Of a stretch of DNA of 64,000 bases, positions 7,044 through 29,114 are shown one piece after another. The translations under genes and the position numbers were made by a program. Source of the stretch: Clostridia bacterium (lineage in GTDB: Bacteria; Bacillota; Clostridia; Acetivibrionales; JAFADI01); the NCBI GenBank assembly GCA_026417615.1, contig JAOACY010000033.1, forward strand, positions 464 through 64,463, given 5' to 3'. Numbering within the stretch: the stretch's first letter is position 1; every line of letters starts with the position of its first letter. The notes below the pieces were generated by a model, which was not told the DNA's origin, made no database searches, and saw nothing but the letters and a program-made list of their open reading frames with translations.

Positions 7044-7295
7044 AATAATCCCCCTCTCTGTAATCTAAAAACACAGCCTGCTGATTTTCCGCCCATATCA
7101 GATAAAAATATATATGGCAAAAGCTATGTGACGATAAGCGATTTTATATTACATTATTTAAATGCGGTTTGCTATAATGTTAAGTTTTAGTAAAAATTCT
7201 GTGTGACAGGGGACGGTTCTTTGTCACTCCTTTTCCATTACGACCTTCTGTTTGCAGAAATCATCCTGAATAATACTGCTTTGTCTTTAGACGAC

Positions 7296-7328
7296 AAAAA
7301 GCAGGATACCTTTGGTAATCCTGCTTTT
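7296..7328 (-). terminator. Rho-independent terminator downstream of ssrA (bidirectional shape)
   Basis: AAAAA-GCAGGAT-acctttggta-ATCCTGC-TTTT: a 7-bp GC-containing stem flanked by an A-run and a T-run, about 30 nt past the tmRNA 3' end. Confidence 0.6.
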
Positions 7329-7356
7329 GATGTCTCCACATTGGACGTGGATTATT

Positions 7357-7737
7357 TGGTGGAGGCGAGGGGAGTCGAACCCCTGTCCGAAACCATATCC
7401 ACAAGAACTTCTCCGGGTGCAGCCATCATTTTTCCATTCCCTCCATGCAACGCCCAATGGCAGGCTGTGCACTTCAGTAGCCTTTTAGTTCCGGTTCGGG
7501 TCAAGGCTAAGGCCAAACCAGTTCTAGAGTTTGACCTTCCTACTCAAAAGGGCTGACTTGTCGACGCCCGGGCCCCCAGGTGCAGCAACCTGGGCCGAAC
7601 GTTCACGGCATTAAGCCGCGAAAGCTAAAGTATTTTCTTCAGCGTTTAATTTTAGTTTCTCGTTTTTTAAGAGGCCCACGAGAATCCTCTACCCGCTATC
7701 CAAGTCTCAACGATCCCGTCGAAACCAATACGCCCCC
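7357..7737 (-). ncRNA. ssrA: tmRNA (transfer-messenger RNA)
   Basis: The reverse complement starts GGGGGCGTATTGGTTTCGACGGG and ends GGGGTTCGACTCCCCTCGCCTCCACCA (tRNA-Ala-like acceptor/T-arm with CCA). Internal tag frame is GCT GAA GAA AAT ACT TTA GCT TTC GCG GCT TAA. It lies immediately downstream of smpB. Confidence 0.9.
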
Positions 7738-7819
7738 ATGTAAATCAGAGGTCAGAAAACAGAAATCAGAGATCAGGTATAACCAACCAATACATTGCTG
7801 TTTTCTGATCCAAAAAAAT

Positions 7820-8284
7820 TTACCGGTAGCTTTCTTTCAATTTTCTGTCTATTTCGCGTTTTGCGTCGCGCTCAGCAATGTCGTCACGCTTGTCGTAAAG
7901 CTTCTTGCCTTTTCCTACACCAAGCTCTATTTTCACCTTGCCGCGCTTGAGATATACCTGCAGCGGTACAAGGGTAAGCCCCTTCTGCTGAACCAGACCC
8001 ACAAGCCTGTTTATTTCGTATCTGTGGAGCAGAAGCTTTCTATCCCTCAAAGGATCTTTGTTGAATATGCTTCCCTGCTCGTAAGGGCTTATATGCATCC
8101 CGTACAGAATAACCTCGCCATGTTCTATCGCAGCATAGCTGTCCTTGAGGTTTACCTTGCCCTGCCTTACGGACTTGACTTCGGTACCCGAAAGCACTAT
8201 CCCCGCTTCCAGAGTCTGCTCAATGAAGTAATCATGCCTTGCTTTTTTGTTTTGTGATACTACCTTAATTCCTTCCTTACTCAT
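7820..8284 (-). CDS. smpB: SsrA-binding protein SmpB
   Basis: Track ORF 7820..8326. The translation ...[37 protein letters not shown]... is a typical SmpB. I prefer the internal ATG at 8284 (MSKEGIK), because the 14 extra N-terminal residues are not SmpB-like. Confidence 0.9.
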
Positions 8285-8456
8285 TATATTACCGCCCGGT
8301 GTAGTAGTTGCAGCATATTCAGACAAAAATAACCCTTCCGTAGAAAGGGTGTTACTAATGATTTTTATTGCAACAAAGTAATATTATACTACTTTATGAT
8401 GAAAAGTCAAGCAGCAGAATTTGCAATTTTCAGTCAGCATATTTTGGTTTTCTATT

Positions 8457-9302
8457 TTACATATAATCTTTAATCTTTTTAAGAAGATCATAAGTTACTT
8501 CCAGATTCCCCCGGCCTTTGCCTATTTCAATATCCGGCTTATAGCTCCCATGGAAGTCGCTTCCTCCGGTAACAAGGAGCTTGTGCTTTATGGCAAGTCT
8601 TAAGAGATTTCCGGTTTCCTCCTTCGTATTGTCAACATAAATAGCTTCAATGCCTTTAAGTCCAACCTGCGCCAATTCACCGAGAAGTTTGTCCAATGCT
8701 TCAAGACTGTGGCCGAGATATATGGGATGAGCCAGTACTGGTACTCCACCAGCTTTTAGTATTTCCTTTATGCCTTCTTCCGGAGTCAGCCTCTCTTTTT
8801 TAAAATAAGCAGGCTTTCCGCATCCAAGCAGTCTGTCAAAAGCATCTTCAACACTGGACACATAGCCCTTGGCGAGCAATACCTTGGCGATATGAGGGCG
8901 TCCCACTATACCCTTGCCTGCTTCGGCTTCAACCTCCTTCATGGTTATGTCAAAGCCCATTTCATTAAGTTTATCAATTATCCTTGGATTTCGGAGCTGC
9001 CTGCTTTCTCTCAACAGGTCAAGCACTGTTTCTATACGTTTATAAGCTTGTTCCGGGAAATATCCAAGGATATGCATTTCCGGCTTGAAATCTACGCTTA
9101 TCTCCAACCCAGGTATTACTTCAATCCCAATGCGTTTTCCTTCAGCAAGAGCTTCTTCAACTCCGTCCACCGAATCATGGTCTGTAAGGGCAAGAGCCAC
9201 AAGCCCCGCCGACTTTGCATGCCTTACCAGTTCAGAAGGAGTCATGCTCCCATCTGATATTGTACTGTGTGTATGTAAATCAATCAATCCGTTCACTGTC
9301 AC
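8457..9302 (-). CDS. PHP-domain phosphoesterase (TrpH/YciV-like)
   Basis: N-terminal DLHTHSTISDGS and LALTDHDSVDG motifs, typical of PHP family metal-dependent phosphoesterases; 281 aa. Confidence 0.85.
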   Translation of the reverse strand: MTVNGLIDLHTHSTISDGSMTPSELVRHAKSAGLVALALTDHDSVDGVEEALAEGKRIGIEVIPGLEISVDFKPEMHILGYFPEQAYKRIETVLDLLRESRQLRNPRIIDKLNEMGFDITMKEVEAEAGKGIVGRPHIAKVLLAKGYVSSVEDAFDRLLGCGKPAYFKKERLTPEEGIKEILKAGGVPVLAHPIYLGHSLEALDKLLGELAQVGLKGIEAIYVDNTKEETGNLLRLAIKHKLLVTGGSDFHGSYKPDIEIGKGRGNLEVTYDLLKKIKDYM

Positions 9303-9343
9303 AGCATCCTCTTTAATTCAATATGAAATATAGATATTAATGT

Positions 9344-9829
9344 TCAAACATTAAAAAAATCTTTCTCCTGCCTGCATACATCAGGAGGAAAGCTTCCTGA
9401 ATAAATAGATTTAAGCAAATGGTCAAGCTTTCTTAATGAGGAGCAGGCCTGTGAGCTGGTAATCAGACCGGCTTCAAGAGCATCCGCCAGTTCATCTGCA
9501 TCCAGTACCTTCATGCTACCATCAGGCATCAGCTTGACGTCAACCAGTAAATCCTTAAGCGTATAAGTATCGCTTTGCTCATCATGCTCAACCTCTATTA
9601 TATCGCAGTACCAATAGAGGAAGCTCCCCTTTTCATCATAAAATCTGCTTATTTTAATACCGTCCTTCAAAAATGTATATGAAATACCTTTTGAAAAATC
9701 CGACCTGGGCTTTATAGCCTTCCAGCTTGTCACCAAAAGGCTTTCATCCCTAAAAAGCAGATTATCGCTGGATATGTCAACTGTTTCAGCAGGAATGTAT
9801 CTGATTCTGAGAATAGTTGGCTTTTTCAT
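9344..9829 (-). CDS. DUF402-family protein (putative nucleoside di/triphosphatase-like)
   Basis: 161 aa. The central FLYWYCDIIEV...LKDLLVDVKLMPDGSMKVLDADELADAL resembles the DUF402 core. Assigned from memory of the family pattern. Confidence 0.55.
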   Translation of the reverse strand: MKKPTILRIRYIPAETVDISSDNLLFRDESLLVTSWKAIKPRSDFSKGISYTFLKDGIKISRFYDEKGSFLYWYCDIIEVEHDEQSDTYTLKDLLVDVKLMPDGSMKVLDADELADALEAGLITSSQACSSLRKLDHLLKSIYSGSFPPDVCRQEKDFFNV

Positions 9830-9985
9830 AGCTCCTCCAAAGCTTTTATTTATATTTAATGCAATAGTTAATATAGATTATACAATACCTTTGATTTTTT
9901 TCAACAACATATTATTTCCCATATTATTCCATAGAATGATTATAAGTGCTATAATATCCTTGCACACTTTATCAGGGAGGATAAA

Positions 9986-10303
9986 ATGAAACAGAAGCGT
10001 TCCTGCAGTAACTGCATAAATGGTACAAGCATATCAATTAACAGCGATATTCTCTGCCGCATAAACGGGGCTGTCTCACCTGACTATGCATGCATGAGGC
10101 ACAGGTTCATGCCCGAGCCAAAGGCTGTTAAAAGCGAGGTTACCAAATGCATTGAGTGTGAATACTTCCTGGTGGAAGCATATAACCCCGATGGAGATTC
10201 TACCATAGGGCTTTGCCAGCTGCTTACCCACCGGCAGTTCGACGGGGGATTGAAAAAAGCCTGCTCAAAATTTATAAAAAAGGCAAAAACCAATATATCT
10301 TAG
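9986..10303 (+). CDS. Small Cys-rich hypothetical protein
   Basis: 105 aa ORF with GGGAGG RBS (9975-9980). Contains CSNC...C...C...CIEC...C, suggesting a zinc-ribbon-like fold. No family recognised. Confidence 0.5.
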   Translation: MKQKRSCSNCINGTSISINSDILCRINGAVSPDYACMRHRFMPEPKAVKSEVTKCIECEYFLVEAYNPDGDSTIGLCQLLTHRQFDGGLKKACSKFIKKAKTNIS

Positions 10304-10367
10304 AATGATGCTTTAGACCTTTTCTATTCATTTCACCTCTGATATAATATTGCTTAGGGGTGAGTAC

Positions 10368-11000
10368 ATGCCTTATAGTGTGCGAGAAATATTTGCAGCA
10401 AAGCTAAATGAAATACAAAGCAGGATTCCGGTCAGAATAATGAAAGAAGCTGACCCGGTGCCTTTTCAGCAGTTTCTGGATACAGCCCTTGAGTCATTCA
10501 CACCGGCCGTTGACAAGCAGGGAATAGAAAGAACCTCAGATTTGCAGCGCGCAAAATCATCCCTTCTGGCAAACAAAACCTCCATTACGAAGGATAAGTC
10601 TGCACTTATGGAGGAGATATCCTCCCTCATCAGGTCAGCCTCAGAAAAATACTCTGTGGATGAAAACCTGATAAAAGCAGTAATCAAGCAGGAGTCCAAC
10701 TACAACCCCCTCTCCCTTTCACGTGCCGGAGCCCAGGGATTGATGCAGCTTATGCCCGGCACTGCAGACGCTCTTTCAGTAAGCAACCCTTGGAATATCA
10801 AGGAGAATATTGAAGGCGGCACCAGATACCTAAAGGACCAGCTTGAGAATTTCGGAGGCAATCTGAAGCTTGCGTTGGCTGCCTATAATGCAGGCTCAAA
10901 TGCTGTACGCAAGTATAACGGCATCCCGCCCTATGCCGAAACTAGAGATTATGTCAATAAGGTTATAAAGTATTACAACCAGTATATGAATGAGAAATAA
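10368..11000 (+). CDS. Lytic transglycosylase (SLT domain) protein
   Basis: IKQESNYNP...[14 protein letters not shown]...[25 protein letters not shown] are SLT-domain hallmarks. I prefer ATG 10368 (RBS GGGGTGAG) over the track's alternative start at 10350. Confidence 0.85.
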
Positions 11001-11181
11001 GTCGTCTCACCTATTGAGTATTACATCACACTTTTGTCATATTGATGCAAGCCAGGAATTTCAAGACATGGTTTTGTTAATTTCATAGAAGTTACTGAGA
11101 AGATATTTTTTATGCGGGCTCGTTATGTTTATATTAATATTTAACAATAATTTAAAATTTATTATGTTTATGTATTAAATT

Positions 11182-11264
11182 TAATCCACAATATCCACAA
11201 CTTTATCAACAGTCCAAAATGTTGCAAAATACTGCATTTGTATTAAGTTTCCACATTATTCACA
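11182..11264. promoter_or_regulatory. Cluster of near-consensus DnaA boxes
   Basis: TAATCCACA (11182-11190), ATATCCACA (11191-11199), TTATCAACA (11203-11211) and TTATTCACA (11256-11264) are each one mismatch from TTATCCACA. GTTTCCACA (11247-11255) has two mismatches. A very AT-rich tract at 11130-11181 lies immediately upstream. Confidence 0.6.
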
Positions 11265-11455
11265 TTTCACGTTTCTTCATTAATCGACATTTTTAGTCCT
11301 AATTCTCTAGATAGTACTGCAGTCCCAGTCTTTATCAAAGGATAAAATTAATTAACATAAGTTATACAGTTCGACATTTTGCACTTGCTATATTTTGGTA
11401 ATTGCTTATTATTTTTGTTAAGTTTTGGCTAAGTTCAACTTTTTGTAAATAAACG

Positions 11456-11483
11456 CCTGTGGATAACCCTAGTTATCCACAGG
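11456..11483. promoter_or_regulatory. Perfect palindrome carrying two consensus DnaA boxes; also a candidate tsaD terminator hairpin
   Basis: CCTGTGGATAAC-ccta-GTTATCCACAGG has 12-bp perfect arms. It contains TGTGGATAA (11458-11466) and TTATCCACA (11473-11481), and abuts the tsaD stop codon (11484-11486). On the minus strand it is followed by GCGTTTATTT. Confidence 0.65.
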
Positions 11484-12536
11484 TCACTTTTCCCCAAGCC
11501 TTAATCCAGGTATTGCATTCAGCTCAAGTCCGGATACATTTCCGTTAAGGTATTCAAAGTATGCAGCACAGGCTATCATGGCAGCATTATCTGTACAAAG
11601 CACAGGTCTGGGATAGAAAACTCCATATCCCGCCGCTGCAGCTTTTTCTTTGAGTTGACTTCTAAGCAGGGAATTTGCGGCCACTCCACCAGCAAGAGTT
11701 ATATTCCTTACCTTTTTTATCTTTGCAGCTTTCAGAGTATTCTCCACAAGCACATCAACCACTGCCTTCTGAAAGCTTGCGCAAATATCTTCTGTTCTGA
11801 CCTTCTCACCTTTTTGCTCTTGATTGTTCAGGTAATTCAGCACAGCAGTCTTAAGACCACTGAAGCTGAAATCCAGACTGCCGTCAGAAAAGCGTACCCT
11901 TGGGAAATCCATGGCACAGCAGTCACCTCCTGCAGCCCATTTGTCAATAAGCGGCCCACCGGGATATCCCAGACCTATTGCCCTTGCGATTTTGTCAAAA
12001 GCTTCTCCGGCTGCGTCATCCCTTGTCTGCCCAAGAATTTCAAACCGGCTGTAGCTTTCAACATACACTATGTGGCTGTGGCCGCCTGATGCGACAAGAC
12101 AAATAAATGGTGGTTCAAGCTCTGGGTGGTCAAGGTAATTGGCAGCAATATGCCCTTCTATGTGATGCACTCCCACCAGCGGTTTGTTTTTGGCAAAAGC
12201 AAGCCCCTTGGCGGCCGACAGGCCTACTAGCAGAGCACCTACAAGCCCCGGACCGTATGTGACTCCTACAACATCAATCTCAGAAAGGCTGATTCCTGCC
12301 TCATCAAGGCTCTGTCTTATAACAGGCATAACAAGCTCAACATGTTTCCTTGAAGCAATTTCAGGCACGACTCCTCCATATTTCTGGTGAAGATCAACCT
12401 GCGAGGAAATAACGTTTGACAGCACATGTCTGCCGTTCTTGACAACTGCCGCGGAAGTCTCATCACAGCTTGTCTCAATTCCAAGTACGATCAAATCCTT
12501 CAAATTCCTACACCCGTTCTTTGTTTTAATACTCAT
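11484..12536 (-). CDS. tsaD: tRNA N6-adenosine threonylcarbamoyltransferase TsaD (Gcp/Kae1 family)
   Basis: [21 protein letters not shown] and SGGHSH motifs; 350 aa. Confidence 0.95.
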
Positions 12537-13845: not shown

Positions 13846-14086
13846 AGTTTTCTCCTTTCGAAGCTGTAACTTTGTCTAAAATACATCAGCAAATATATAC
13901 CCAAAAGAGCTATCCTTAAAACAGAGTACATTAATTTTTATGAGTTGTAAAGCTTGCTTTGTGTGTATTGTATATAACGACAAAAAACAAGGCCCCCTCT
14001 GGAGCCCTGCCATTTGTTCCAAATATTCTTTTTATTCCAAGAAAAGCTTTTCTTGGAATAGAATTGTTCTATTTATTTGCAGTTTA

Positions 14087-14731
14087 CTACGCACACTTTT
14101 CCTTGCAAACCCTTGCAGCTTCATCAGCAGCAGACGCTGCGTCAGGAGTATAGATGTCTGCTTCAACCTGCTTGCAGAAGCTGTCTGTTACAGGTGCGCC
14201 GCCGATCATGATTGTTACCTGATCTCTTATGCCGGCTGCCTTTGCCGCTTCAACAACATGCTTGATTTCTCCCATGGTTGTTGTGAGAAGCGCTGAGCAA
14301 GCAATAATCTGAGCACCTGTTTCTTTTGCGGTGTTTATAAACTTTTCACTAGAAACATCTATGCCGACATCTATAACTTCCAGCCCCTTGCCTTCCATCA
14401 TCATCCTTACAAGATTCTTACCGATGTCATGAAGGTCACCCTTTACTGTCCCAAGCACAACCTTACCTATCGCCTTAACACCGCTGGAAGCCAAAAGGGG
14501 TTTCAGCAATTCTGCGCCTGCATTCATAGCTCTTGCAGCAATAAGCACGTCAGGAACATAAACTTCGTTGTTTTTGAATTTTTCCCCGATAACGCTCATG
14601 CCTGCAAGAAGGCCTTCGTCAAGGATAGCTTTTACATCTATTCCATCATCTATAGCCTTCTGCACCAGCTCCTTCACTACCTTTGCCTTACCCTGCTGTA
14701 AGTTTGTTGAGATTTCATTTAAAATACTCAT
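14087..14731 (-). CDS. Corrinoid (B12-binding) protein of a methyltransferase system (MtaC/MtbC-like)
   Basis: 214 aa. N-terminal helical cap plus the B12-binding motif GTVKGDLHDIGKNLV (DxHxxG). Confidence 0.9.
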   Translation of the reverse strand: MSILNEISTNLQQGKAKVVKELVQKAIDDGIDVKAILDEGLLAGMSVIGEKFKNNEVYVPDVLIAARAMNAGAELLKPLLASSGVKAIGKVVLGTVKGDLHDIGKNLVRMMMEGKGLEVIDVGIDVSSEKFINTAKETGAQIIACSALLTTTMGEIKHVVEAAKAAGIRDQVTIMIGGAPVTDSFCKQVEADIYTPDAASAADEAARVCKEKCA

Positions 14732-14800
14732 ACTAAATCCTCCCTGTAACTATTAATATATATTTTAATGCCTAAACGGCTTTTGCCCTTTATTAGAGTT

Positions 14801-16102
14801 TCAGCCCTGACTTCTGATTTTCCCTCTGGCTTCACGGTACTTGCCAGGGCTGACTCCCGTAACCTTCTTGAAAACCTTTGTAAAATAACTCTGATCCTCA
14901 TATCCGACAAGATTTGATACATCAACCAGTGCAACCGTTTCATTTAAAAGCAGTTTTTTGGCCATGTCTATCCTTATTTGGTTCAGGTAGGTATTGAAGT
15001 TGCACTTCATTTCCTCCTTGAAAACCTTGCTGAAATAAGACGGACTCAGGTATACATTGGAAGCTACTTCCTCAAGAGTAATTTTCCTGGCATAGTTCCT
15101 TTTAATATAGTCCACTGCCTTGAATATAACATCTATATGCTTGACTTCCGCCAGGTTGAACACACAGTCCGTAAACCTTCCCATTATCTTCGAGAGCCAG
15201 TAGGTAAGCTCCTCTACTGTTTTGAAATCGTGTACCTGAGACAGGTATTTATAATTCAAGCCGAAAATTTGTTCAACATCGGCTCCGCCCTCCACGGCTG
15301 CTCTGGAAAGCAGAACCACAAGCTCCAAAACCCTTGCTTTTATGATTTCAAAGTTACCGCCCGTAGAAAAAAATATATGTCCGAAAATCTCATTCAGCAC
15401 TTTCTGGGATCCGGGCTTATCTCCAATGGAAATAAGCGAAAGCAGCTCTTTTTCCTTTTCTATAGGGTAACCCAGTGTCTCACCTTCATCCCCGCCCATT
15501 GTCTTAATATAATGCAGATATTCTGAAATACCTGACTGGTGCTCCAGGTATTCCCGATCCTCCAAGTACTGAGAGGGCCTCGTGTCAGATATATGAGTCG
15601 ATACAATAAACAACAGTTCCGCAAGGCTATTTACAATATCTGGCTGAATGATGGGTATATCCTTTATGTATGCCTTCAGCTCTTCAATCCCTTCTTCACA
15701 TATACTGCTTTTCTTTAACATATCCTCAAGCAGAAACTCCTCAGGTTCTACCATTAGTACAGGTCCTCCGAGGATTGCGCCTTTCATTGTCCCGTGCATG
15801 GTTATCGGAGATGCCCAATGAACAAGTCCTATGGGACAGAAAAATATATAGCTTCCTCCAAAGCGTTCGGCCTGATAGCTTCCATACAGATGCACGTTCT
15901 GACATGTCTGATGCTGTCCCAAAATACCCTGCACCCTGCTGCAAAAATTACAAGTATTGTTATTTCCGCATGAATTATATAAAGTTTTTCCGGTGGAATC
16001 AATAAGGATACTTTCTACACCCACGGACCTGCTATATGCATCAAGGCTTTTTTTAACCCGGTCCAAGCTGATTCCATCATCCTTTGCCAGGATAGCTTCC
16101 AT
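14801..16102 (-). CDS. PocR-sensor / AraC-family transcriptional regulator
   Basis: N-terminal PocR-like Cys/His pattern (CNFCSRVQG...CQNVHLYG...FFCPIGLVHW). C-terminal AraC HTH (YFSKVFKEEMKCNFNTYLNQIR...GYEDQSYFTKVFKKVTGVSPGKYR). Confidence 0.85.
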   Translation of the reverse strand: MEAILAKDDGISLDRVKKSLDAYSRSVGVESILIDSTGKTLYNSCGNNNTCNFCSRVQGILGQHQTCQNVHLYGSYQAERFGGSYIFFCPIGLVHWASPITMHGTMKGAILGGPVLMVEPEEFLLEDMLKKSSICEEGIEELKAYIKDIPIIQPDIVNSLAELLFIVSTHISDTRPSQYLEDREYLEHQSGISEYLHYIKTMGGDEGETLGYPIEKEKELLSLISIGDKPGSQKVLNEIFGHIFFSTGGNFEIIKARVLELVVLLSRAAVEGGADVEQIFGLNYKYLSQVHDFKTVEELTYWLSKIMGRFTDCVFNLAEVKHIDVIFKAVDYIKRNYARKITLEEVASNVYLSPSYFSKVFKEEMKCNFNTYLNQIRIDMAKKLLLNETVALVDVSNLVGYEDQSYFTKVFKKVTGVSPGKYREARGKIRSQG

Positions 16103-16233
16103 CAGATCACTCTTTCTTACCGTGTAGAATAAAATCGCAAATTCATTCTACCAGATAACAATTCTTTAGTAAATGGAAGGGTTATTAGCGTATTTTAATA
16201 ATACTACTTATTCAATTGAAGGTATTGAAAACT

Positions 16234-16303
16234 TTTTTAGTTTTTTGTACTTTCCCGTCATCCTTGATAAACAGCACTTTTTAGTTCCTGTCATCGATAA
16301 AAT
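16234..16303. promoter_or_regulatory. Two direct repeats in the divergent regulator/methyltransferase promoter region (candidate AraC-type operator)
   Basis: TTTTAGTT...CCGTCATCCTTGATAAA (16235-16271) and TTTTAGTT-CCTGTCATC-GATAAAA (16278-16302), spaced about 43 bp apart. Confidence 0.35.
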
Positions 16304-16462
16304 ATTACAATACATCTAAAAACATTCCTATATCAAAAATCAAAAAGAAGTTATCATGATAATGCATGCATCAAAAATATCAACATATTACAACTAATTA
16401 TTGTTAACGCATTATAGTTTATATGTAATAAAATATTAATAAGGAAAGGAATGTGACTTATT

Positions 16463-17494
16463 GTGAAGAAGGAAATGAAAAAATGGTTACATGAACTGAC
16501 TGCTTCGGTCGAAAGGCATACCATGCCCATAATGACCTATCCAGGACTAAAGCTGGTTAACAAATCCATCATGGACGTAATAAGTGATGGTGAAGCTCAA
16601 TTTGAATGCATAGAAGCATTATCGAAAAAGTATCCTTCAATCGCTGCAGTTACAATAATGGACTTATCTGTTGAGGCGGAAGCTTTCGGCAGCCATGTAA
16701 GGTATTCCGACGAGGATGTGCCCTCCGTAATAGGCAGGATTATTGAAGGTGAAGAATCGGCAAATGCCCTTAAGGTTCCCAAGGTAGGAGACGGACGCAC
16801 TTCAGTATACCTGAAGGCAGCCGAGCTTGCTGCCGCCAATATAAAGGACCGCCTCACCTTTGGCGGAGAAATCGGTCCCTTCTCACTGGCAGGCAGATTG
16901 TTTGACATGACGGAAATAATGGTAGCTACAATGCTTGAGCCTGAAACAGTGCATATCGTGCTGGAAAAAGCCACACAGTTTCTTGTTGAATATGCCAAGG
17001 CTTTCAAGAATACCGGCGCCAACGGCATCATAATTGCAGAACCTGCAGCAGGTCTTCTGTCGCCTGAGCACTGCACTGAGTTCTCCTCTAATTATGTCAA
17101 GAGAATAGTTGACGCCGTCCAGGACGACAACTTTGTCGTAATACTACACAACTGCGGTAACACAAAGAATCTGGTTCCATCCCTCCTTTCAACTGGAGCC
17201 AGGTGCTTCCATTTCGGCAATGCAGTGGATATGGCTGATATTATGCCTCAGATCCCCTGGGGAAGGGTTGCCTTCGGCAATATAGACCCTGCAAGGGTAT
17301 TTAAAAACGGCACTGTCGAGGAAATGAAGCAAAAAACCTGGGAGCTTCTTGAAAAAACTGCCGTATATAAAAACTTCGTGCTTTCCTCAGGCTGCGATGT
17401 TCCTCCCGGAACTCCCCTGGAAAACGTGGAGGCCTTCTTTGAAACCCTGGATGAATTCAACAAGACTGTGCTTAGAGAATTTACAGTAGCTTGA
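16463..17494 (+). CDS. UroD-fold MtaA/CmuA-family methyltransferase (candidate substrate:corrinoid or methylcorrinoid methyltransferase)
   Basis: 343 aa with typical MtaA/UroD-family layout (...ILHNCGNT...SSGCDVPPGTPLENV). The start is uncertain: GTG 16463 or ATG 16475. Confidence 0.8.
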   Translation: MKKEMKKWLHELTASVERHTMPIMTYPGLKLVNKSIMDVISDGEAQFECIEALSKKYPSIAAVTIMDLSVEAEAFGSHVRYSDEDVPSVIGRIIEGEESANALKVPKVGDGRTSVYLKAAELAAANIKDRLTFGGEIGPFSLAGRLFDMTEIMVATMLEPETVHIVLEKATQFLVEYAKAFKNTGANGIIIAEPAAGLLSPEHCTEFSSNYVKRIVDAVQDDNFVVILHNCGNTKNLVPSLLSTGARCFHFGNAVDMADIMPQIPWGRVAFGNIDPARVFKNGTVEEMKQKTWELLEKTAVYKNFVLSSGCDVPPGTPLENVEAFFETLDEFNKTVLREFTVA

Positions 17495-17504
17495 TTTTAG
17501 ATAG

Positions 17505-17530
17505 GCCCGGTGAAGTACCGGGCTTTTTTA
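17505..17530 (+). terminator. Rho-independent terminator
   Basis: GCCCGGT-gaagt-ACCGGGC followed by TTTTTTA, 11 nt after the stop codon. Confidence 0.8.
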
Positions 17531-17588
17531 TTTAAATTTCCTAAAAAAATTATAATATACTCCAATTTATTATTAAATTTAAAAAGAT

Positions 17589-17812
17589 ATAATTGAATTA
17601 TGATTCTGTCTCAAAAACAGCTTTTCTTGAAACAAGATGCAAAAAGCACTCACCGAAGTTAGGTCAATTCCCGCGCAAAAATGCCACGGATGGCATTCCG
17701 AGCATTACATCACAGGATTTTCCGTTGATGCGTGCGAGGAATTGCAAGACAAGGTGATAGTGATTTCATCGAAGTTTACGAAAATGGTTTTTTGCAGTCG
17801 AATCAATTATTA
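17589..17812. repeat. Family-1 long imperfect palindromic intergenic element, full-length copy A
   Basis: The left arm AATTGAATTATGATTCTG..CAAAAACAGCTTTTC...GCACTCACC...GTCAATTCCCGCGCA matches the reverse complement of the right arm TGCGTGCGAGGAATTGC...GGTGATAGTGATTT...GAAAATGGTTTTTTGCAGTCGAATCAATT. It shares an exact 21-mer (17619-17639) with copy E, and both of its ends with copy B. Confidence 0.7.
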
Positions 17813-17833
17813 ATTTAAAGGAGCTTTGCATAC

Positions 17834-20776
17834 ATGAGTGAACTTCTGAATAACCTCAAAAATGCATCAAACGAGTATCGTCCCGTACCCTTCTGGTCAT
17901 GGAACGACAAACTGGAGCCTGATATTCTGAAGTGGCAGATCAGGGAAATGAAAAAGGCAGGTTTGGGAGGCTACTTCATGCATGCGCGGAGCGGGCTTAA
18001 AACCCGGTATCTTAGTGAAGAATGGATGGAATGTATCAAGGCATGCATAGAAGAAGGCAAAGCCCTTGGAATGGGAGCCTGGTGCTATGATGAGGAAGGA
18101 TGGCCCAGCGGCTTTGCAGGCGGCATAGTCCCATCCCTTGGAGAAAAATACCATGTCAAATGGCTCGAATTGACGAAATATGACCCGGAAAATACAGTTA
18201 CAGTAGAGAATGCTCTGGGCTTTTACAAAATTAATAATGAAAATATAGCAGTAAGCTATAAAACAAACAAGTGTTATGTAGATATTCTAAGCAGGGAAGT
18301 TGTGGCTGAATTTCTAAAATCCACTCATGAAAAGTACTACAGCCTCTTCAAGGAGGATTTCGGAAATGCAATGCCTGGTTTCTTCACCGATGAACCACAG
18401 TATTCCAGTGGAAGGATACCCTGGTCCGAGGTAATTCCCTCTTCCTTCCTAAATGCGTATGGTTATGATTTGCTTGAGTCCCTTCCTGCACTCTTTCTGG
18501 AATGTGAAGGTTATGAAAGGATCAGGTATGATTTCTGGAAGCTGGTCAACGAGCTGTACACCAATTCCTTCATGAAGCAGATTTATGACTGGTGCAATGA
18601 GCATGGCTGCAAGCTCACAGGTCATGTGATGGCTGAGGAAGGCCTGCATGGTCAGATGTATGCAACCGCCGGAGTTATGCCATCCTACCAATACATGCAC
18701 ATTCCGGGAATAGACTGGCTTGGCAGAAAAATCAGCAGCCCCCTTTCACCCAAGCAGGTAGCTTCTGTTGCACATCAACTTGGAAAAAAGCTGGTGCTTA
18801 CCGAAACTTTTGCATTATGCGGCTGGGATGTCAGCTTTGAGGAGCTTAAATGGATAGCGGAATTCCAGTATGTTAACGGCGTAAACCTCATGTGCCAGCA
18901 CCTTGAAGGGTATTCCCTGAAAGGCATAAGAAAGCGCGACTATCCACCCTCTATGTTTTATCAGCAGCCTTGGTGGAGAGAATACGCACTCTTTAATGAC
19001 TACTTCACAAGGCTTGGAGTTCTTCTGACAAGCGGCAAGTATCAGGCTGAGGTTCTTTTGCTGCACCCCGTCAGAAGTGCATGGCTTACTTACAACGGAA
19101 CAGCAAATCAGGATCTGAAATGGCTTGATGATGAGTTTTTCAAAGCTGTGGAGACCCTTTCGGGACTGCATGCAGACTATCACCTGGGGGACGAGGAGAT
19201 AATGAAAAAGCACGGCAGGGTGGAAGACGGCAGGTTAATAGTGGGCCAGTGCGCATACAAGGCTGTAGTGCTACCTTCTATGGTTACCATAGATGCATCA
19301 ACCCTTGGTCTCCTGAAGGAATTTGTATCCGCAGGCGGTAAGGTCATAAGCATAGGTAAGCTTCCGGAGTACTGTGAGGGAAGAAAAAGCGAGGAAACTG
19401 ATTGGCTCAAAAGCAACACCATTTGTACAGACACCGATACAAAAGCACTAAAACAATTTATTCAAGAAACAGGTGCCTCAAATATTGACATAATGTCAGA
19501 CGGAGTGGAAGTTAATTGCATACATTATATGCAAAGGCTTGTGGAAGATACGCAGGTGCTTTATCTTGTAAATCATGACAACGAAAAATCATATGCCACA
19601 CAGGTTACTCTAAGAGCGGATGGCTCAGTATGCTCACTGGATGTTTTGAGCTTGGAAAAGAAAGCTCTGCAATATTCACAGCAAGGAGGCTTCCTAACCT
19701 TCCCCCTTGATTTTGAGCCCATGCAGTCTCATGTCATATTGATTGAAAGCCATAGCGGCATAATGCACACAGAAGCCGCCGGCATGAAAATAAAACCTGG
19801 CACACACTGGAAAATTGAAAAAATGGATCTCAACGCTCTTACTCTGGACTACTGCAGCTACAGCATTGACGGAGGAAGCTGGAACGAGCCAGTCCCAGTA
19901 ATACAACTGATGGATAAGCTTCTTGAAATGAAAAGAAGCTGTGATATTGCAATGGGGTTTGATTTTGAAATAGATATGGACTTAAGTCTCTTGAAAGAAT
20001 TCTACCTTGTAATGGAGGATGCTGAAAATTTTGAAATTAATATAAACGGAACTGAAATAAAATATACCGATATTGGATACTGGAAGGATATATCCTTTAA
20101 GAAAATTGATATAAGGCAGCATTTAATTAACGGCTCCAACCATATTATTCTAAGAAGGAGATTCTATCAATCCCCCAAGGTTTATGAGGCGCTTTTCGGT
20201 GAAAACATCCTTGAAACGGAAACAAACAAGCTTACATACGATGTTGAACTGGAAAGCATATATCTTGTCGGAAACTTCGGAGTTAAAAGCAAATCCAGTT
20301 ATACCTCGGGAGACAGAAAGGCTTTATTTACAAAAGGGCCTTTTGTGATAACTGACAGCCCATGCATTGTAACCGGAAGCGACTTGACACAGCAAGGCTT
20401 GTGTTTCTTTTCAGGTTCCATAACCCTTGGTCAGGAGATCATTGTACCGGACACACCGGATAATATTGTTCTGGACCTAGGGCATCCAAAGGCCGCCATG
20501 TGCAAGGCATATTTGAATGGAGTGACTGTAAAGCCGCTTTTTTGGGCGCCATATAAAATAGATATAACAGGGTATGTAAAGCCGGGAACAAACAAGCTGG
20601 AGGTACAGCTTTTTTCCGGAAACAGAAACCTGTTGGGACCACATCATCACAAACGCGGCGAGCTTTACGCCGTTTGCCCAACAAGCTTCGGCTTTAAAAA
20701 AGGCTGGGGGGAAGAAGACATGGATGACCAGTGGACTGACACATACTGCTTTGTGGAATTCGGCATGGGAGAATAA
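17834..20776 (+). CDS. Large intracellular glycoside hydrolase (GH106-like / jelly-roll glycosyl hydrolase family)
   Basis: 980 aa with no signal peptide. The N-terminal YRPVPFWSWNDKLEPDILKWQIREMKKAGLGGYFMHARSGL pattern is one I associate with GH106-related hydrolases. RBS AGGAG at 17818-17822. Confidence 0.6.
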   Translation: MSELLNNLKNASNEYRPVPFWSWNDKLEPDILKWQIREMKKAGLGGYFMHARSGLKTRYLSEEWMECIKACIEEGKALGMGAWCYDEEGWPSGFAGGIVPSLGEKYHVKWLELTKYDPENTVTVENALGFYKINNENIAVSYKTNKCYVDILSREVVAEFLKSTHEKYYSLFKEDFGNAMPGFFTDEPQYSSGRIPWSEVIPSSFLNAYGYDLLESLPALFLECEGYERIRYDFWKLVNELYTNSFMKQIYDWCNEHGCKLTGHVMAEEGLHGQMYATAGVMPSYQYMHIPGIDWLGRKISSPLSPKQVASVAHQLGKKLVLTETFALCGWDVSFEELKWIAEFQYVNGVNLMCQHLEGYSLKGIRKRDYPPSMFYQQPWWREYALFNDYFTRLGVLLTSGKYQAEVLLLHPVRSAWLTYNGTANQDLKWLDDEFFKAVETLSGLHADYHLGDEEIMKKHGRVEDGRLIVGQCAYKAVVLPSMVTIDASTLGLLKEFVSAGGKVISIGKLPEYCEGRKSEETDWLKSNTICTDTDTKALKQFIQETGASNIDIMSDGVEVNCIHYMQRLVEDTQVLYLVNHDNEKSYATQVTLRADGSVCSLDVLSLEKKALQYSQQGGFLTFPLDFEPMQSHVILIESHSGIMHTEAAGMKIKPGTHWKIEKMDLNALTLDYCSYSIDGGSWNEPVPVIQLMDKLLEMKRSCDIAMGFDFEIDMDLSLLKEFYLVMEDAENFEININGTEIKYTDIGYWKDISFKKIDIRQHLINGSNHIILRRRFYQSPKVYEALFGENILETETNKLTYDVELESIYLVGNFGVKSKSSYTSGDRKALFTKGPFVITDSPCIVTGSDLTQQGLCFFSGSITLGQEIIVPDTPDNIVLDLGHPKAAMCKAYLNGVTVKPLFWAPYKIDITGYVKPGTNKLEVQLFSGNRNLLGPHHHKRGELYAVCPTSFGFKKGWGEEDMDDQWTDTYCFVEFGMGE

Positions 20777-20823
20777 GCAAATAAATCACTATGTTAATAC
20801 TACAGCGTAAATATGTCAGAATT

Positions 20824-21579
20824 CTATGATCCCTCAAGCCTGAAGAGGAATACCGCTATTCCAAGAACTATAGTAGCAAACACCCCCAGAAATCCGAGAT
20901 TGGCCCATATGGAGTTGTCGGGAGTAAGGCCCAGCATTACGGGACGCACTAAATCCACACAATAATATACCGGGTTTACCCGTGTTAAAATTTTAATCCA
21001 CACTGGAACATGATTTATGGGATACATGGCTCCGCTCAGAAAAAACATAGGCATCACCACAAAATTGTTCATTACACCGAAGCCTTCAAAGGAACGCATT
21101 CTGACGGCAATAAGTATCCCAAGGGCGGTGATGCAGAAGGAAATCAGGAACATGCAGCAAAGCGTCAGCGTCAGCTGAGCTATGCTAAGCCTTATACCTA
21201 TGAAAGGGTAAAACACCAGCACAATGAGTCCTTGAATAGTGGACATAATGCTTCCTCCCAGAGTTTTACCCACCGCTATGGAGATTCTGGATACCGGAGC
21301 CACCAGTATTTCTTTAAGAAAGCCGAACTCCCTGTCCCAGATGATGGAAGTACCTGCCATAATAGAAGCAAACAATATATTCATCACAAGAATCCCGGGA
21401 AATATATAGTGAATATAATCCACTCCGGCCACTCCTCCAAAAGACCCTCTGAGCCCAGTCCCCAGAAGAAAGAGCCATACTACGGGCCTTGCAATGGAGC
21501 CAAAGAGCCTGCTTTTCTCACGCAGCCCACGGATTACCTCTCTTGTCGCAATTACTAAGCTATCTGAAACTCCCGTCAT
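20824..21579 (-). CDS. ABC-2 type transporter permease
   Basis: 251 aa polytopic membrane protein directly downstream of a DrrA-like ATPase. Confidence 0.8.
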   Translation of the reverse strand: MTGVSDSLVIATREVIRGLREKSRLFGSIARPVVWLFLLGTGLRGSFGGVAGVDYIHYIFPGILVMNILFASIMAGTSIIWDREFGFLKEILVAPVSRISIAVGKTLGGSIMSTIQGLIVLVFYPFIGIRLSIAQLTLTLCCMFLISFCITALGILIAVRMRSFEGFGVMNNFVVMPMFFLSGAMYPINHVPVWIKILTRVNPVYYCVDLVRPVMLGLTPDNSIWANLGFLGVFATIVLGIAVFLFRLEGS

Positions 21580-21585
21580 AATTTT

Positions 21586-22572
21586 CTATGCCTCCTTCCT
21601 CATTTTCATAAAATTCTTTGTCCTGTCCCGGTGCGCATTTCCTTCCTCTTCACGTATCTTTCTGCCAGTAAGCTTTATAAATACATCCTCCAGTGTAGTC
21701 TTCTTCACGTCTATTTCCCTTATTTCATCTCCAAATTTCTCGAACAGGGTTGGAATGGATTTCCCGCTATCAGAAAGAATTATCCTTATTGTTTCATTGT
21801 CAATTATCTCACACTGAAGGCCAGGGTTAACATCTAGCTGAGATTTAATGCCTGAAGGATTGCCGGTTTTTATAGTCACTACATCTCCCCCAACCATCCG
21901 TTTTAGATTGCCTGGCGTATCCAGGGCAATTATTCTGCCCTGGTCCATTATAGCTATTCTGCTGCATATCTCAGCTTCTTCCATATAGTGGGTGGTAAGA
22001 AACATGGTCATGCCCTTTTTTGTGCGAAGTTCACCGATATACTCCCATACCTGCTTGCGAGTCTGAGGGTCAAGGCCTATGGTAGGCTCATCCAAGAAAA
22101 GAAGCCTGGGTGCATGCAGCATACCTCTGGCAATTTCCACCCTCCTTTTCATACCCCCGGAAAGAGTTCTTACCAGGCTATTGCCCCTTTCACTCATATC
22201 CACCAGCTCCAAGGCCTCTTCAATTCTTTCCTTTATCAGCCTGCCGGGTACATGGTACAGCTTTGCATGAAAATACAGATTTTCAACAACCGTCAGATTA
22301 TTATCCAGGCTTGGATCCTGAAATATGATTCCCACAGACTCCCTCACCCTGTGAGGCTGTGACAGGGTATTGTAACCATTTATATGCACGCTGCCTTCAT
22401 TTTGCTTAAGTATAGTGCATAGCAGCTTGATTGTGGTGGATTTCCCTGCACCGTTAGGGCCAAGAAATCCGAATATTTCTCCTTCCTCCACATTGAAGCC
22501 TGCTTTGTTTACAGCTATTATGCTTTCAAATTTTTTCACCAGTCCACACACTTCAATAATATTTTTACTCAT
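21586..22572 (-). CDS. ABC transporter ATP-binding protein (DrrA-like exporter ATPase)
   Basis: Walker A GPNGAGKST, signature LSGGMKRR, Walker B LLFLDEPT. Confidence 0.9.
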   Translation of the reverse strand: MSKNIIEVCGLVKKFESIIAVNKAGFNVEEGEIFGFLGPNGAGKSTTIKLLCTILKQNEGSVHINGYNTLSQPHRVRESVGIIFQDPSLDNNLTVVENLYFHAKLYHVPGRLIKERIEEALELVDMSERGNSLVRTLSGGMKRRVEIARGMLHAPRLLFLDEPTIGLDPQTRKQVWEYIGELRTKKGMTMFLTTHYMEEAEICSRIAIMDQGRIIALDTPGNLKRMVGGDVVTIKTGNPSGIKSQLDVNPGLQCEIIDNETIRIILSDSGKSIPTLFEKFGDEIREIDVKKTTLEDVFIKLTGRKIREEEGNAHRDRTKNFMKMRKEA

Positions 22573-22996
22573 CGTTCACCTGCACCTCCAGTTCCTCCAG
22601 CTTATCAAGCAGCTTATACAGCATTTCCTTTTCCTCTTCGTCCAGCACCGACAACAATTTATCAATAAATTGCCTGTGTGCAGGCACAACCGTCCTTTTT
22701 AGTGCAACCCCTTGAGGAGTCAGCCTGACAAAAATCATCCTCCTGTCATCCTCGTCCCTGTATCTTAAGACCAGAGTCTTTTTCTCCATATTATCAATCA
22801 AGGCGGTTATGTTGCTGTTCACTCTCAGAAGGCGACCGCTAAGCTCTGATAAGGTAAGCATCCCATCCTCATCCAGATTGCGCAGCACGCCGTATTCAGC
22901 CCCTGACAATCCGAATTTCTCCAGATGGCTCCTGGAAATTTTCATTAGCTTTTCTACAGTCACCACAAGTTTTCTGAAAACCTCAAAACCATCCAA
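22565..22996 (-). CDS. MarR-family transcriptional regulator
   Basis: 143 aa winged-helix pattern (LSGAEYGVLRNL...LTLSELSGRLLRVNSNITALIDNMEKK). Overlaps the ATPase start by 8 nt. Confidence 0.85.
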   Translation of the reverse strand: MDGFEVFRKLVVTVEKLMKISRSHLEKFGLSGAEYGVLRNLDEDGMLTLSELSGRLLRVNSNITALIDNMEKKTLVLRYRDEDDRRMIFVRLTPQGVALKRTVVPAHRQFIDKLLSVLDEEEKEMLYKLLDKLEELEVQVNDE

Positions 22997-23112
22997 GCTA
23001 ACACCATCTCCCTGTTTTTAATAATATTATATTATTCAACTTTGAATATTTCAATGCTGAAATTTTTATTGCTGCACCCCTTCTTCAGCATCAATTGTAT
23101 TATTTGTAAGCA

Positions 23113-23198
23113 AGATTTCATAGTAAAAACAGCTTCTTTTGAGGATTCCATCAAAGTTTTCCGAAATGGGTTTTTGTAGTGGAATGGTGTGTTAATTT
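23113..23198. repeat. Family-1 element, short copy B (ends retained, centre missing)
   Basis: AAAAACAGCTTCTTTTGA (23125-23142) matches A 17614-17631. GGATTCCATCAAAGTTTTCCGAAATGGGTTTTTGTAGTGGAATGGTGTGTTAATTT is about 75% identical to A 17760-17816. Confidence 0.6.
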
Positions 23199-23299
23199 TC
23201 TTATTATTTTATCATTTCAAAGCGTTGAGATTGCTCCCAATTTAGAATATAATTGGTTTCATAAGCCACAAAGGCTAAGTTTCAAATGGAGGTTGTCGT

Positions 23300-24100
23300 A
23301 TGATAATTATCGGTGAAAAAATAAATAGTACACTCAAAGCTGTACGTCCTGCTATAGAGAATAATGATGCCGCTTTCATTCAGGATCTAGCAAAAAGGCA
23401 GTATGATGCCGGAGCAGCGTATATTGATGTTAACGCAGGCATGTTCCATGATTGTGAAGCAGAAAAAGTAGATTGGCTGATAAATACTATACAGGACGCC
23501 ATAGATGCTCCATTTTCAATAGATTCACCTAATTCCGCAGCTCTCGAAAGCGGCCTGAAGGCAAATAAAAACGGCAAGCCAATCATTAACTCCATAACTG
23601 ATGAAAAGGACAGATATAACTCTGTCTTACCGCTTGTTATCAAATATAACACCGCAATTATTGCTCTGTGTATGGATGACAACGGCATGCCTGAAACAGT
23701 AGACGAAAGGGTAACCATTGCTGACAGGCTTATTTCCAAGCTTACAAAAGAAGGCGTTGCTCTGGCAGACATATATATCGACCCAATGGTTCGCCCTGTA
23801 GGAACGGGCTCCCACTATGGAGTTGTGGCAATCGAGACCATAAGAAAGGTTAAGGCTGAGTTCCCTCAAGCCCACATAGCCTGCGGCCTGAGCAATATCT
23901 CCTTCGGAATCCCCGCAAGAAAGCTTATGAACCAGGCTTTTCTCATCGCTGCCATAGGCGCTGGAATGGACGGAGCCATAATGGATCCTCTGGACAGAAG
24001 GCTCATGTCCTTCGTGTACACAGCCGAAGCCTTGTTTGGACTTGACAATTTCTGCATGAACTATCTCATGAAGTTCAGAGAAGGACTGCTTGAGGTATAA
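23300..24100 (+). CDS. Methyltetrahydrofolate:corrinoid methyltransferase (pterin-binding, MeTr/AcsE-like)
   Basis: 266 aa. IIGEKINST..., IDVNAG, INSIT and CGLSNISFGIP motifs of the pterin-binding TIM barrel. Confidence 0.85.
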   Translation: MIIIGEKINSTLKAVRPAIENNDAAFIQDLAKRQYDAGAAYIDVNAGMFHDCEAEKVDWLINTIQDAIDAPFSIDSPNSAALESGLKANKNGKPIINSITDEKDRYNSVLPLVIKYNTAIIALCMDDNGMPETVDERVTIADRLISKLTKEGVALADIYIDPMVRPVGTGSHYGVVAIETIRKVKAEFPQAHIACGLSNISFGIPARKLMNQAFLIAAIGAGMDGAIMDPLDRRLMSFVYTAEALFGLDNFCMNYLMKFREGLLEV

Positions 24101-28539: not shown

Positions 28540-28624
28540 TGGTGGGAGGAGATGGATTCGAACCATCGAAGTCAGAGACAACAGATTTACAGTCTGCCCC
28601 CTTTGGCCGCTCGGGAATCCTCCC
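28540..28624 (-). tRNA. tRNA-Tyr (GTA), long variable arm, encoded CCA
   Basis: The reverse complement GGGAGGATTCCCGAGCGG...GCAGACTGTAAATCTGT...GATGGTTCGAATCCATCTCCTCCCACCA folds as a cloverleaf. Anticodon loop is CTGTAAA. Confidence 0.9.
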
Positions 28625-28694
28625 ATATTCAATTAGCCTGCTTTGCAACTCCTTGACTTTGTAATTCAAAGCCCTGTCGCTATCGACGAAGTAT

Positions 28695-28724
28695 ATATTA
28701 ACACGGAGTTAACCATGCTGTCAA
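28695..28724 (-). promoter_or_regulatory. Candidate promoter for tRNA-Tyr
   Basis: Minus strand reads TTGACA-18 nt-TAATAT, about 70 nt upstream of the mature 5' end. Confidence 0.5.
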
Positions 28725-28769
28725 CACTTTTCTTCAAAGAAAAACATTCCAAATATATGTTAAGTGGTA

Positions 28770-28806
28770 TAAAAACGTGTAGTCCGCATTTGTGCAAACT
28801 ACACGT
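28770..28806 (-). terminator. Terminator after the tRNA Glu-Asp-Thr unit
   Basis: ACGTGTAGT-ttgcacaaatgcgg-ACTACACGT followed by TTTTT on the minus strand. Confidence 0.65.
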
Positions 28807-28809
28807 TTT

Positions 28810-28885
28810 TGGAGCTGGTGGACGGAATCGAACCCCCGACCTGCTGATTACAAGTCAGCTGCTCTACCTGCTGAGCTACACCAGC
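28810..28885 (-). tRNA. tRNA-Thr (TGT), encoded CCA
   Basis: The reverse complement is GCTGGTGTAGCTCAGCAGGTAGAGCAGCTGACTTGTAATCAGCAGGTC...CACCAGCTCCA. Anticodon loop is CTTGTAA. There is one G-G mismatch in the T stem. Confidence 0.85.
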
Positions 28886-28889
28886 ATAT

Positions 28890-28965
28890 TGGCGACCCGG
28901 AAGGGGCTCGAACCCTCGACCTCTAGCGTGACAGGCTAGCGTTCTGACCAACTGAACTACCGGGC
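28890..28965 (-). tRNA. tRNA-Asp (GTC), encoded CCA
   Basis: The reverse complement is GGCCCGGTAGTTCAGTTGGTCAGAACGCTAGCCTGTCACGCTAGAGGTCGAGGGTTCGAGCCCCTTCCGGGTCGCCA. Confidence 0.9.
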
Positions 28966-29039
28966 CAAAAACTACAGATATCAGAAATCAGATTAATATT
29001 CACCTATGAAGGTAGCTAGAATTCTGTTCTCTGCTTTTT

Positions 29040-29114
29040 TGGTGACCCATAGGGGACTCGAACCCCTGTTACCGCCGTGAAAGGGCGGTGTCTTAACCGC
29101 TTGACCAATGGGCC
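29040..29114 (-). tRNA. tRNA-Glu (TTC), encoded CCA
   Basis: The reverse complement is GGCCCATTGGTCAAGCGGTTAAGACACCGCCCTTTCACGGCGGTAACAGGGGTTCGAGTCCCCTATGGGTCACCA. Confidence 0.9.

Follow-up and report, generated by a model that had tools for sequence, protein, structure and literature searches.

A corrinoid methyl-transfer gene set in a genome of the order Acetivibrionales: the probable half of a dispersed methanol-type methyltransferase system

We analyzed a 64,000-nucleotide stretch of DNA (the window: positions 464 to 64,463 of the forward strand of contig JAOACY010000033.1, Clostridia bacterium assembly GCA_026417615.1) that carries four genes for corrinoid-dependent methyl transfer: a corrinoid protein, a PocR-AraC regulator, a UroD-like methyltransferase and a pterin-type methyltransferase. 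The assembly comprises 2.46 Mb in 127 contigs, is 84% complete and belongs to the order Acetivibrionales; the window corresponds to contig C94 in our numbering, in which C stands for contigs, G for genomes and L for loci. Genes were called with an open reading frame (ORF) map and two profile libraries, and every gene named in an earlier sequence-only reading of this DNA was found in place by these means. We consider that the window probably encodes one half of a methanol-type corrinoid methyltransferase system with scattered genes, namely its regulator, its carrier and its acceptor-side enzymes, a proposal that draws on gene content and on comparison with related genomes.

The regulator gene (14801-16102, minus strand) encodes an MtaR-like protein with a PocR sensor domain (residues 11-174) and an AraC helix-turn-helix (residues 347-424). 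It lies directly upstream of the gene for the MtaC-like corrinoid protein (14087-14731, minus strand), the second gene of the same operon, whose 214-amino-acid product contains B12-binding_2 and B12-binding domains. The gene for the UroD-like protein (16463-17494, plus strand; URO-D family, 187 bits), predicted to be an MtaA/MtbA-like zinc methyltransferase, is divergent from the regulator gene, as had been described before. The pterin-binding methyltransferase (23300-24100, plus strand, 266 amino acids) is encoded 5.8 kb from this three-gene module. The earlier statement that the set is interrupted was also confirmed: between its parts lie a gene for a 980-amino-acid hydrolase (17834-20776, plus strand), recognized by a partial GH106 match of 86 bits, and an operon (20824-22996, minus strand) in which domain matches identified a MarR regulator, a DrrAB-like ABC-2 permease and the ATPase of this exporter. 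The flanks of the set are made up of housekeeping genes (TsaD, a flavodiiron protein, TyrRS, an aminotransferase and DapF).

The region reads as at least five transcription units, judging from predicted signals. A terminator-like hairpin follows the corrinoid protein gene (13986-14011, minus strand; 11 pairs, 6 of them G-C, then a T-run), and a second one stands directly 3' of the UroD-like gene (17503-17525, plus strand; 10 pairs, 6 of them G-C, then TTTTATTT). Because the latter hairpin separates the UroD-like gene from the hydrolase gene, the two probably do not share an operon. A consensus scan detected promoter-like sites upstream of the pterin-type gene (23225-23253) and 5' of the MarR gene. 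In the divergent promoter region between the PocR and UroD genes, an element of the form GGTATTGAAAAC-N-TTTTTTGTACTTT (16221-16253, plus strand) is recognizable in seven loci, namely the window, L032, L033, L024, L006, L008 and L010, which makes it a candidate regulator site or promoter. Direct repeats of the form GTCATC(N)GATAAA adjoin this element at 16257-16271 and 16290-16301; they are found in the window only and are not kept in the relatives. A riboswitch or T-box was sought in the 360-bp PocR/UroD spacer, and no Rfam family reached threshold anywhere in the region.

The UroD-like protein was placed by hidden Markov model scores, by a zinc-site rule and by structure comparison. It scored 148-154 bits with MtaA/CmuA models versus 77 bits with the HemE model TIGR01464, the cut-off of which is 303 bits, and it has a zinc site; the view that it is not a bona fide uroporphyrinogen decarboxylase was thereby upheld. 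Its scores also fell below the curated cut-offs of TIGR01463 (148 versus 235 bits), NF040654 (109 versus 400 bits) and NF041608 (118 versus 600 bits), so that on these scores it appears to belong to a subfamily separate from the curated MtaA, MtbA and CmuA families. Methanosarcina mazei MtaA (4ay7), with 23% identity, was its only significant PDB match that is not a decarboxylase. The AlphaFold model (pLDDT 93.5) showed the UroD TIM-barrel fold, and 4ay7 was also the best Foldseek match, with a TM-score of 0.85. Close homologues, with 65-80% identity, are common in metagenomic Clostridia.

The predicted zinc ligands H229, C231 and C311 align with the HxC...C motif of MtaA. No variation was seen at these three positions among 38 aligned homologues, and all 120 homologues contain the surrounding motifs. 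In the UroD superfamily, S-methyltransferases carry a His-Cys-Cys site, whereas O-demethylases have a carboxylate or a non-ligand residue at one or both cysteine positions (PMC10418091). Because both cysteines are kept here, this criterion suggests that the window's enzyme acts on sulfur or selenium and not on oxygen. The sequence-only reading had proposed an O-demethylase-like methyltransferase I (MT I); the His229-Cys231-Cys311 site, which is of the thiol type found in MtaA and MtbA and is without the O-demethylase carboxylate, speaks against that assignment. MtaA-like proteins outside methanogens are described as lacking an assigned role (Kountz and Balskus, PMC10418091).

The same reading had listed an activase and a substrate methyltransferase of the MttB or MtaB type as missing. 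Both are indeed absent from the window, but the genome encodes an activase and an MtaB on other contigs, and in relatives these genes are clustered with the set. The MtaB gene (PF12176, 574 bits) lies at C67:28641-30032 and is followed by a gene for a CobW-family GTPase. The RACE-type activase gene (C69:24361-26175) stands directly after cobT, the pair spanning C69:23286-26175, and encodes an intact protein of 604 amino acids with 2Fe-2S and RACo domains. A DUF1638 protein is encoded on C100; MttB was not found in the 84%-complete genome. Absence of a corrinoid supply would have spoken against the set; CbiC and CobT were both found, and FTHFS is present as well. The parts are thus spread over C94, C67, C69 and C100 and do not form one contiguous operon. 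Because each of these loci lies several kb inside its contig, the dispersal is real and not an assembly artefact.

The window's corrinoid protein contains the motif GDLHDIG, which corresponds to DxHxxG, and its best PDB match was the Moorella cobalamin-binding protein 1y80 (E 2.5e-54). Apart from MetH, it is the sole canonical small corrinoid protein of the genome. Another small B12-binding protein, at C14:3042-4892, has ELHEVG in place of DxHxxG, and its neighbor was read by us, with no family search, as a PAS/SpoIIE-type phosphatase gene. On these sequence features the C14 pair probably serves in B12-dependent sensing rather than in carrying methyl groups. Because this B12-binding protein looks regulatory and there is no other beside MetH, the corrinoid protein of the window would be the only plausible partner of MtaB.

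The pterin-type enzyme scored 343 bits with NF005719, for which the cut-off is 259 bits. Its best PDB match was 4o0q, which we take to be the MT II of a Desulfitobacterium hafniense O-demethylase, and MeTr was also among the best. It shares 45-48% identity with the product of the gene at the mtaA position in acetogen-type mtaB-mtaC-mtaA clusters (L065, L066, L071 and L075). In several relatives, the pterin-type orthologue has a divergent MTHFR paralogue (about 140 bits) at a distance of 3-6 kb (G093:C1:4150350-4151225, G112:C27:134916-135785, G025:C60:7864-8736 and G027:C209:6420-7292), a neighborhood that may point to a connection with methyl-tetrahydrofolate oxidation or reduction. MTHFR itself is encoded by 141 of the order's 149 genomes, and the idea that the pterin-type enzyme stands in for a missing MTHFR was rejected on this count.

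Gene linkage was assessed in a comparison set of 149 genomes of the same order. All window proteins were run by tblastn against 25 related loci, which were examined gene by gene, and an order-wide search was added. Because the genomes are related to each other, the order-wide counts describe a pattern and do not amount to a statistical test. The corrinoid protein recurs in 14 of the 25 loci and the PocR-AraC regulator in 12, and the two genes are adjacent wherever both are present; in at least 12 related loci, the regulator orthologue has beside it a corrinoid protein orthologue of 75-85% identity. A UroD-like gene that borders this pair is in most cases transcribed divergently from the regulator. 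L032 and L033 contain all four genes in a compact cluster of about 5.5 kb. A frequent block in relatives runs from MeTr through a 420-amino-acid TmcAL-like gene (a label from our own sequence reading, with no family search), in some cases UroD, then PocR and the corrinoid protein, to RNase J. The claim that the four genes belong together as a corrinoid methyl-transfer set was borne out by these data, as the trio is adjacent in many relatives and a pterin-type orthologue lies within 10 kb of the PocR-corrinoid protein pair in 9 genomes from several families.

The missing parts join the set in other relatives. L025 (closed genome G002) and L026 hold, in one cluster of about 10 kb, the UroD gene, the corrinoid protein and PocR genes, the CobW and MtaB genes, and finally DUF1638, CobT and RACE; L027 and L029 are variants of this arrangement. 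Across the order, orthologues of the UroD-like protein were found in 52 of 149 genomes, those of PocR-AraC in 64 and MtaB in 28. Nearly all genomes with MtaB also carry the regulator (27 of 28), and most carry the UroD-like protein (24 of 28); in 10 genomes the UroD-like and MtaB genes are no more than 12 kb apart. The block between UroD and the corrinoid protein in L007 and L009 (UDG, GNAT, MFS, GDPD and DUF711) was uninformative. In genus g7, eight genomes yielded no UroD-like homologue at E <= 1e-40.

Next to the UroD-like gene of G002, at L025:5781-7531, stand a gene for a small NIR_SIR-type protein resembling sulfite or nitrite reductases and a DUF4865 gene. Homologues of these two were not found in the window's genome, and neither gene recurred among the 25 related loci.

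Two closed genomes bear on the direction of methyl transfer. G002 encodes MtaB, the corrinoid protein, RACE and the UroD-like protein, and no stand-alone folate (pterin) methyltransferase was found in it. None was found either in G071, where, at locus L083, a UroD-like homologue with 51% identity adjoins a Pyl-type MtmB. Because the UroD-like protein occupies in both genomes the place of the methanogen methyltransferase 2 (MT2), MtaA or MtbA, we infer that it moves a methyl group from the methyl-corrinoid protein to a thiol and may be regarded as a putative MT2.

Locus L083 (G071:C1:3831000-3850900), from a relative within Acetivibrionales, contains at about 186-12103 a single operon with a complete bacterial pyrrolysine cassette. 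It comprises a PucR regulator, the UroD-like protein (51% identity to the window's), a Pyl-type corrinoid protein, MtmB, RACE, a truncated second UroD-like protein, the C-terminal part of PylS, PylB, PylC and PylD. The MtmB gene has an in-frame TAG codon (ggg ttg tag ggg).

On its gene content, the whole appears to be a form of the methanol Mta system in which the genes are dispersed and a methanogen-like MT2 comes in addition. In such a system, the RACE activase would keep the corrinoid protein as Co(I), and MtaB would methylate it from methanol. The pterin-type enzyme would then hand the methyl group to tetrahydrofolate, like the MtaA of acetogens. From the same carrier, the UroD-like enzyme could hand the methyl group to a thiol, like the MtaA or MtbA of methanogens, with homocysteine and sulfide as candidate acceptors. 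By analogy with MtaR of E. limosum, the PocR-AraC regulator might sense methanol or a similar small molecule and then activate the module.

Among the closest known counterparts is the MtaABC/MtaR system of acetogens (Eubacterium limosum, Acetobacterium woodii and Moorella thermoacetica). Loci L065, L066, L071 and L075 contain, in order, PocR-AraC, a corrinoid protein, a CobW-like protein, two small genes, MtaB, a second corrinoid protein and a 266-amino-acid pterin-type methyltransferase. The mta cluster of E. limosum matches this list of parts, and its PocR-AraC activator, MtaR, is needed for induction by methanol (PMC13602510); the MtaA of acetogens has a mass of 29.7 kDa (PMC13391211). The present system resembles these clusters in that a PocR-AraC gene is followed by a corrinoid protein gene, in its CobW-like protein and MtaB, and in an MtaA-like enzyme of about 266 amino acids; its own MtaB is 50-52% identical to the MtaB proteins of L065, L066, L071 and L075. 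It differs in that the genes are distributed over at least four contigs and not gathered in one operon, and in that no acetyl-CoA synthase was found, which makes the organism a non-acetogen as far as an 84%-complete genome shows. A further difference is the additional UroD-type enzyme divergent from the regulator. A class-wide sample of 399 genomes contained 20 with MtaB, including the window's own genome, and none of the 17 MtaB loci sampled outside the order has a UroD-like gene nearby. Among the MtaB loci sampled, this gene is a feature specific to the order.

The methanogen systems MtaB-MtaC-MtaA and MtmB-MtmC-MtbA (Methanosarcina) share with it the sequence from methyltransferase 1 through a corrinoid protein to a UroD-fold zinc MT2 with a His-Cys-Cys site, and in L083 a relative pairs the UroD-like family with a pyrrolysine-containing MtmB. 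Unlike these, the present system belongs to a bacterial host, and its UroD-like protein shares 23% identity with MtaA and scores under the MtaA, MtbA and MtaA/CmuA cut-offs. A bacterial host of this kind would not be expected to contain coenzyme M.

The three-component O-demethylases (Odm and Vdm of Acetobacterium dehalogenans, those of Desulfitobacterium hafniense, and Mtv of Moorella) likewise have a corrinoid protein that works with a pterin-type MT II and with an activase of the RACE type. However, their UroD MT I has a carboxylate or a non-ligand residue in place of Cys (PMC10418091), while the window's enzyme keeps both cysteines, and here MtaB is available as MT I. Lastly, in the type 1 mlp clusters, genes for a corrinoid protein and RACE accompany those for bacterial MtaA-like proteins that have a His-Cys-Cys site and are proposed to act on methyl-sulfur or methyl-selenium compounds (PMC10418091). 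H. thermocellum is a published carrier of a cluster of this type. In contrast to the present case, such clusters carry at least Mlp2 and Mlp3 and are devoid of PocR-AraC, MtaB and folate methyltransferase genes; only one Mlp is encoded in the window, and RACE is encoded on another contig.

Several observations weigh against the methanol-type proposal. Identity between the window's regulator and the PocR-AraC proteins of the acetogen-type clusters L065, L066, L071 and L075 is limited to 29-31%. The zinc-site rule is a published correlation and no proof (PMC10418091). Neither acetyl-CoA synthase nor MTHFR nor pectin methylesterase was found in the 84%-complete genome, although the absence of MTHFR, which nearly the whole order possesses, is probably due to an assembly gap or incompleteness. 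Most genomes of the order, even some without the module, encode a pterin-type orthologue, which could have an independent role. Finally, 28 of the 52 genomes with a UroD-like orthologue lack MtaB. Methanol therefore cannot be the sole methyl source of the UroD-like enzyme; others must exist, for instance methyl-tetrahydrofolate by way of the pterin-type enzyme, or methylthiols.

This last point also favors a reading that we regard as unlikely but as a live rival, in which the module would carry out MtsAB-like methylthiol demethylation: the UroD-like enzyme would serve as MT I and pass methyl groups from methanethiol, dimethylsulfide or other methylthio compounds to the corrinoid protein, the pterin-type enzyme would transfer them to tetrahydrofolate, and MtaB would provide a parallel input. 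Methanogen MtsA runs in both directions. The 28 genomes mentioned above agree with this reading, and G117 and G122 lack MtaB although they encode the UroD-like protein, the corrinoid protein, PocR and the pterin-type enzyme. A His-Cys-Cys site is compatible with sulfur or selenium substrates whichever way the methyl group moves (PMC10418091). G002 and G071 argue the other way, as they have MtaB or MtmB and a corrinoid protein but no stand-alone folate methyltransferase, which leaves the UroD-like protein as the sole candidate on the acceptor side; moreover, no sulfur-metabolism genes are conserved beside the module in the 25 related loci. Less probable still, in our judgment, is that no joint function extends past the trio, the pterin-type protein being a housekeeping folate enzyme that merely shares a neighborhood with PocR, the corrinoid protein and UroD. 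Its wide distribution would agree with this, as would G127 and G128, which have the pterin-type orthologue in a conserved glycosyltransferase - RNase J - MeTr block and lack UroD, PocR and MtaB, and L032, where an unrelated 422-amino-acid TmcAL-like gene separates the pterin-type and UroD-like genes. On the other hand, a stand-alone methyl-tetrahydrofolate:corrinoid methyltransferase needs a corrinoid partner, and the window's protein is the only canonical one apart from MetH. The recurrence of the pterin-type gene within 10 kb of the PocR-corrinoid protein pair in several families, and the fact that its homologue is the mtaA gene of acetogen clusters, also speak for a shared function.

The sequence-only reading had speculatively proposed an O-demethylase-like system that strips methyl ethers from sugars freed by the GH106-like hydrolase. 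We consider this highly improbable. The hydrolase gene does lie physically between the parts of the set, and in L024 the module adjoins a second UroD paralogue, AraC, SASA, GH67, GH2, GH43 and GH127. However, the zinc site is of the thiol type and not of the O-type, MtaB provides a substrate enzyme, and a terminator-like hairpin stands between the UroD-like and hydrolase genes. The link to the hydrolase was not sustained by comparison either: only 20 of the order's 149 genomes have GH106-like genes, these were never near UroD, PocR or MeTr orthologues (the hydrolase is thus unlinked in the other 19 genomes that have a homologue), and they were absent from the 25 related loci. A literature search found no description of corrinoid-dependent sugar O-demethylation. 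The 980-amino-acid protein has no signal peptide. The ABC-2 and MarR genes, for their part, were not conserved neighbors of the set in any of the 25 related loci. We judge the hydrolase and the MarR/ABC-2 exporter to be unrelated neighbors and not part of the system.

A further reading, which we put forward tentatively and consider doubtful, concerns the Clostridia of this order as sugar fermenters that are not methanogens and apparently not acetogens either. In them, a relay might run from MtaB or a pyrrolysine-type MtmB through the corrinoid protein to an MtaA/MtbA-like zinc enzyme and on to a bacterial thiol, instead of to coenzyme M or tetrahydrofolate. Such a relay could, for example, drive the direct methylation of homocysteine or sulfide with methanol or methylamine, and in the present genome the carrier would be common to the thiol and folate branches. 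The question of real interest is which thiol accepts the methyl group in bacteria. The genomic contexts of the extra methanogen-like acceptor enzyme provide testable pairings in closed genomes, with MtaB in G002 and with a pyrrolysine-type MtmB in G071.

Consumption of the methanol that plant cell walls release is usually credited to methanogens, acetogens and some sulfate reducers. The present data suggest that plant-polymer-fermenting Clostridia also carry a complete and regulated methanol methyltransferase system; a literature search on MtaB in cellulolytic clostridia found nothing relevant. They also correct the attractive but unsupported idea that methylated sugars are demethylated by this set.

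Divergent UroD paralogues with non-Cys metal sites (HSD, DCD, HSD and HSC..H) were observed at C68:4529-5545 and C79:7630-8763 of the window's own genome, at L024:11086-12183 and at L022:6155-7396. Those on C68 and C79, the two other UroD paralogues of this genome, are away from the window locus and have no Cys ligands. The paralogues on C68, C79 and L024 adjoin AraC regulators; other genes nearby encode GH4 and PfkB on C79, SASA and GH67 in L024, and GFO_IDH_MocA and AP_endonuc_2 in L022. If these bacteria have any corrinoid-dependent sugar O-demethylase, these non-Cys paralogues would be better candidates for it than the window's UroD-like gene.

A possible trace of the history of the module was seen on C69, where RNase J and the TmcAL-like gene are convergent and stand back to back (C69:13334-16271). 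In relatives, the space between these two genes holds either the UroD-PocR-corrinoid protein module (L032 and L033) or the PocR-corrinoid protein pair (L037 and L040). By its gene arrangement the C69 site looks like an empty ancestral site, in which case the module would have moved as a unit.

Outside the set, the window contains a tmRNA gene (7357-7737, minus strand), a group of four tRNA genes (28543-29114, minus strand) and an ORF of more than 2347 amino acids (3-7043, minus strand) that continues past the window start.

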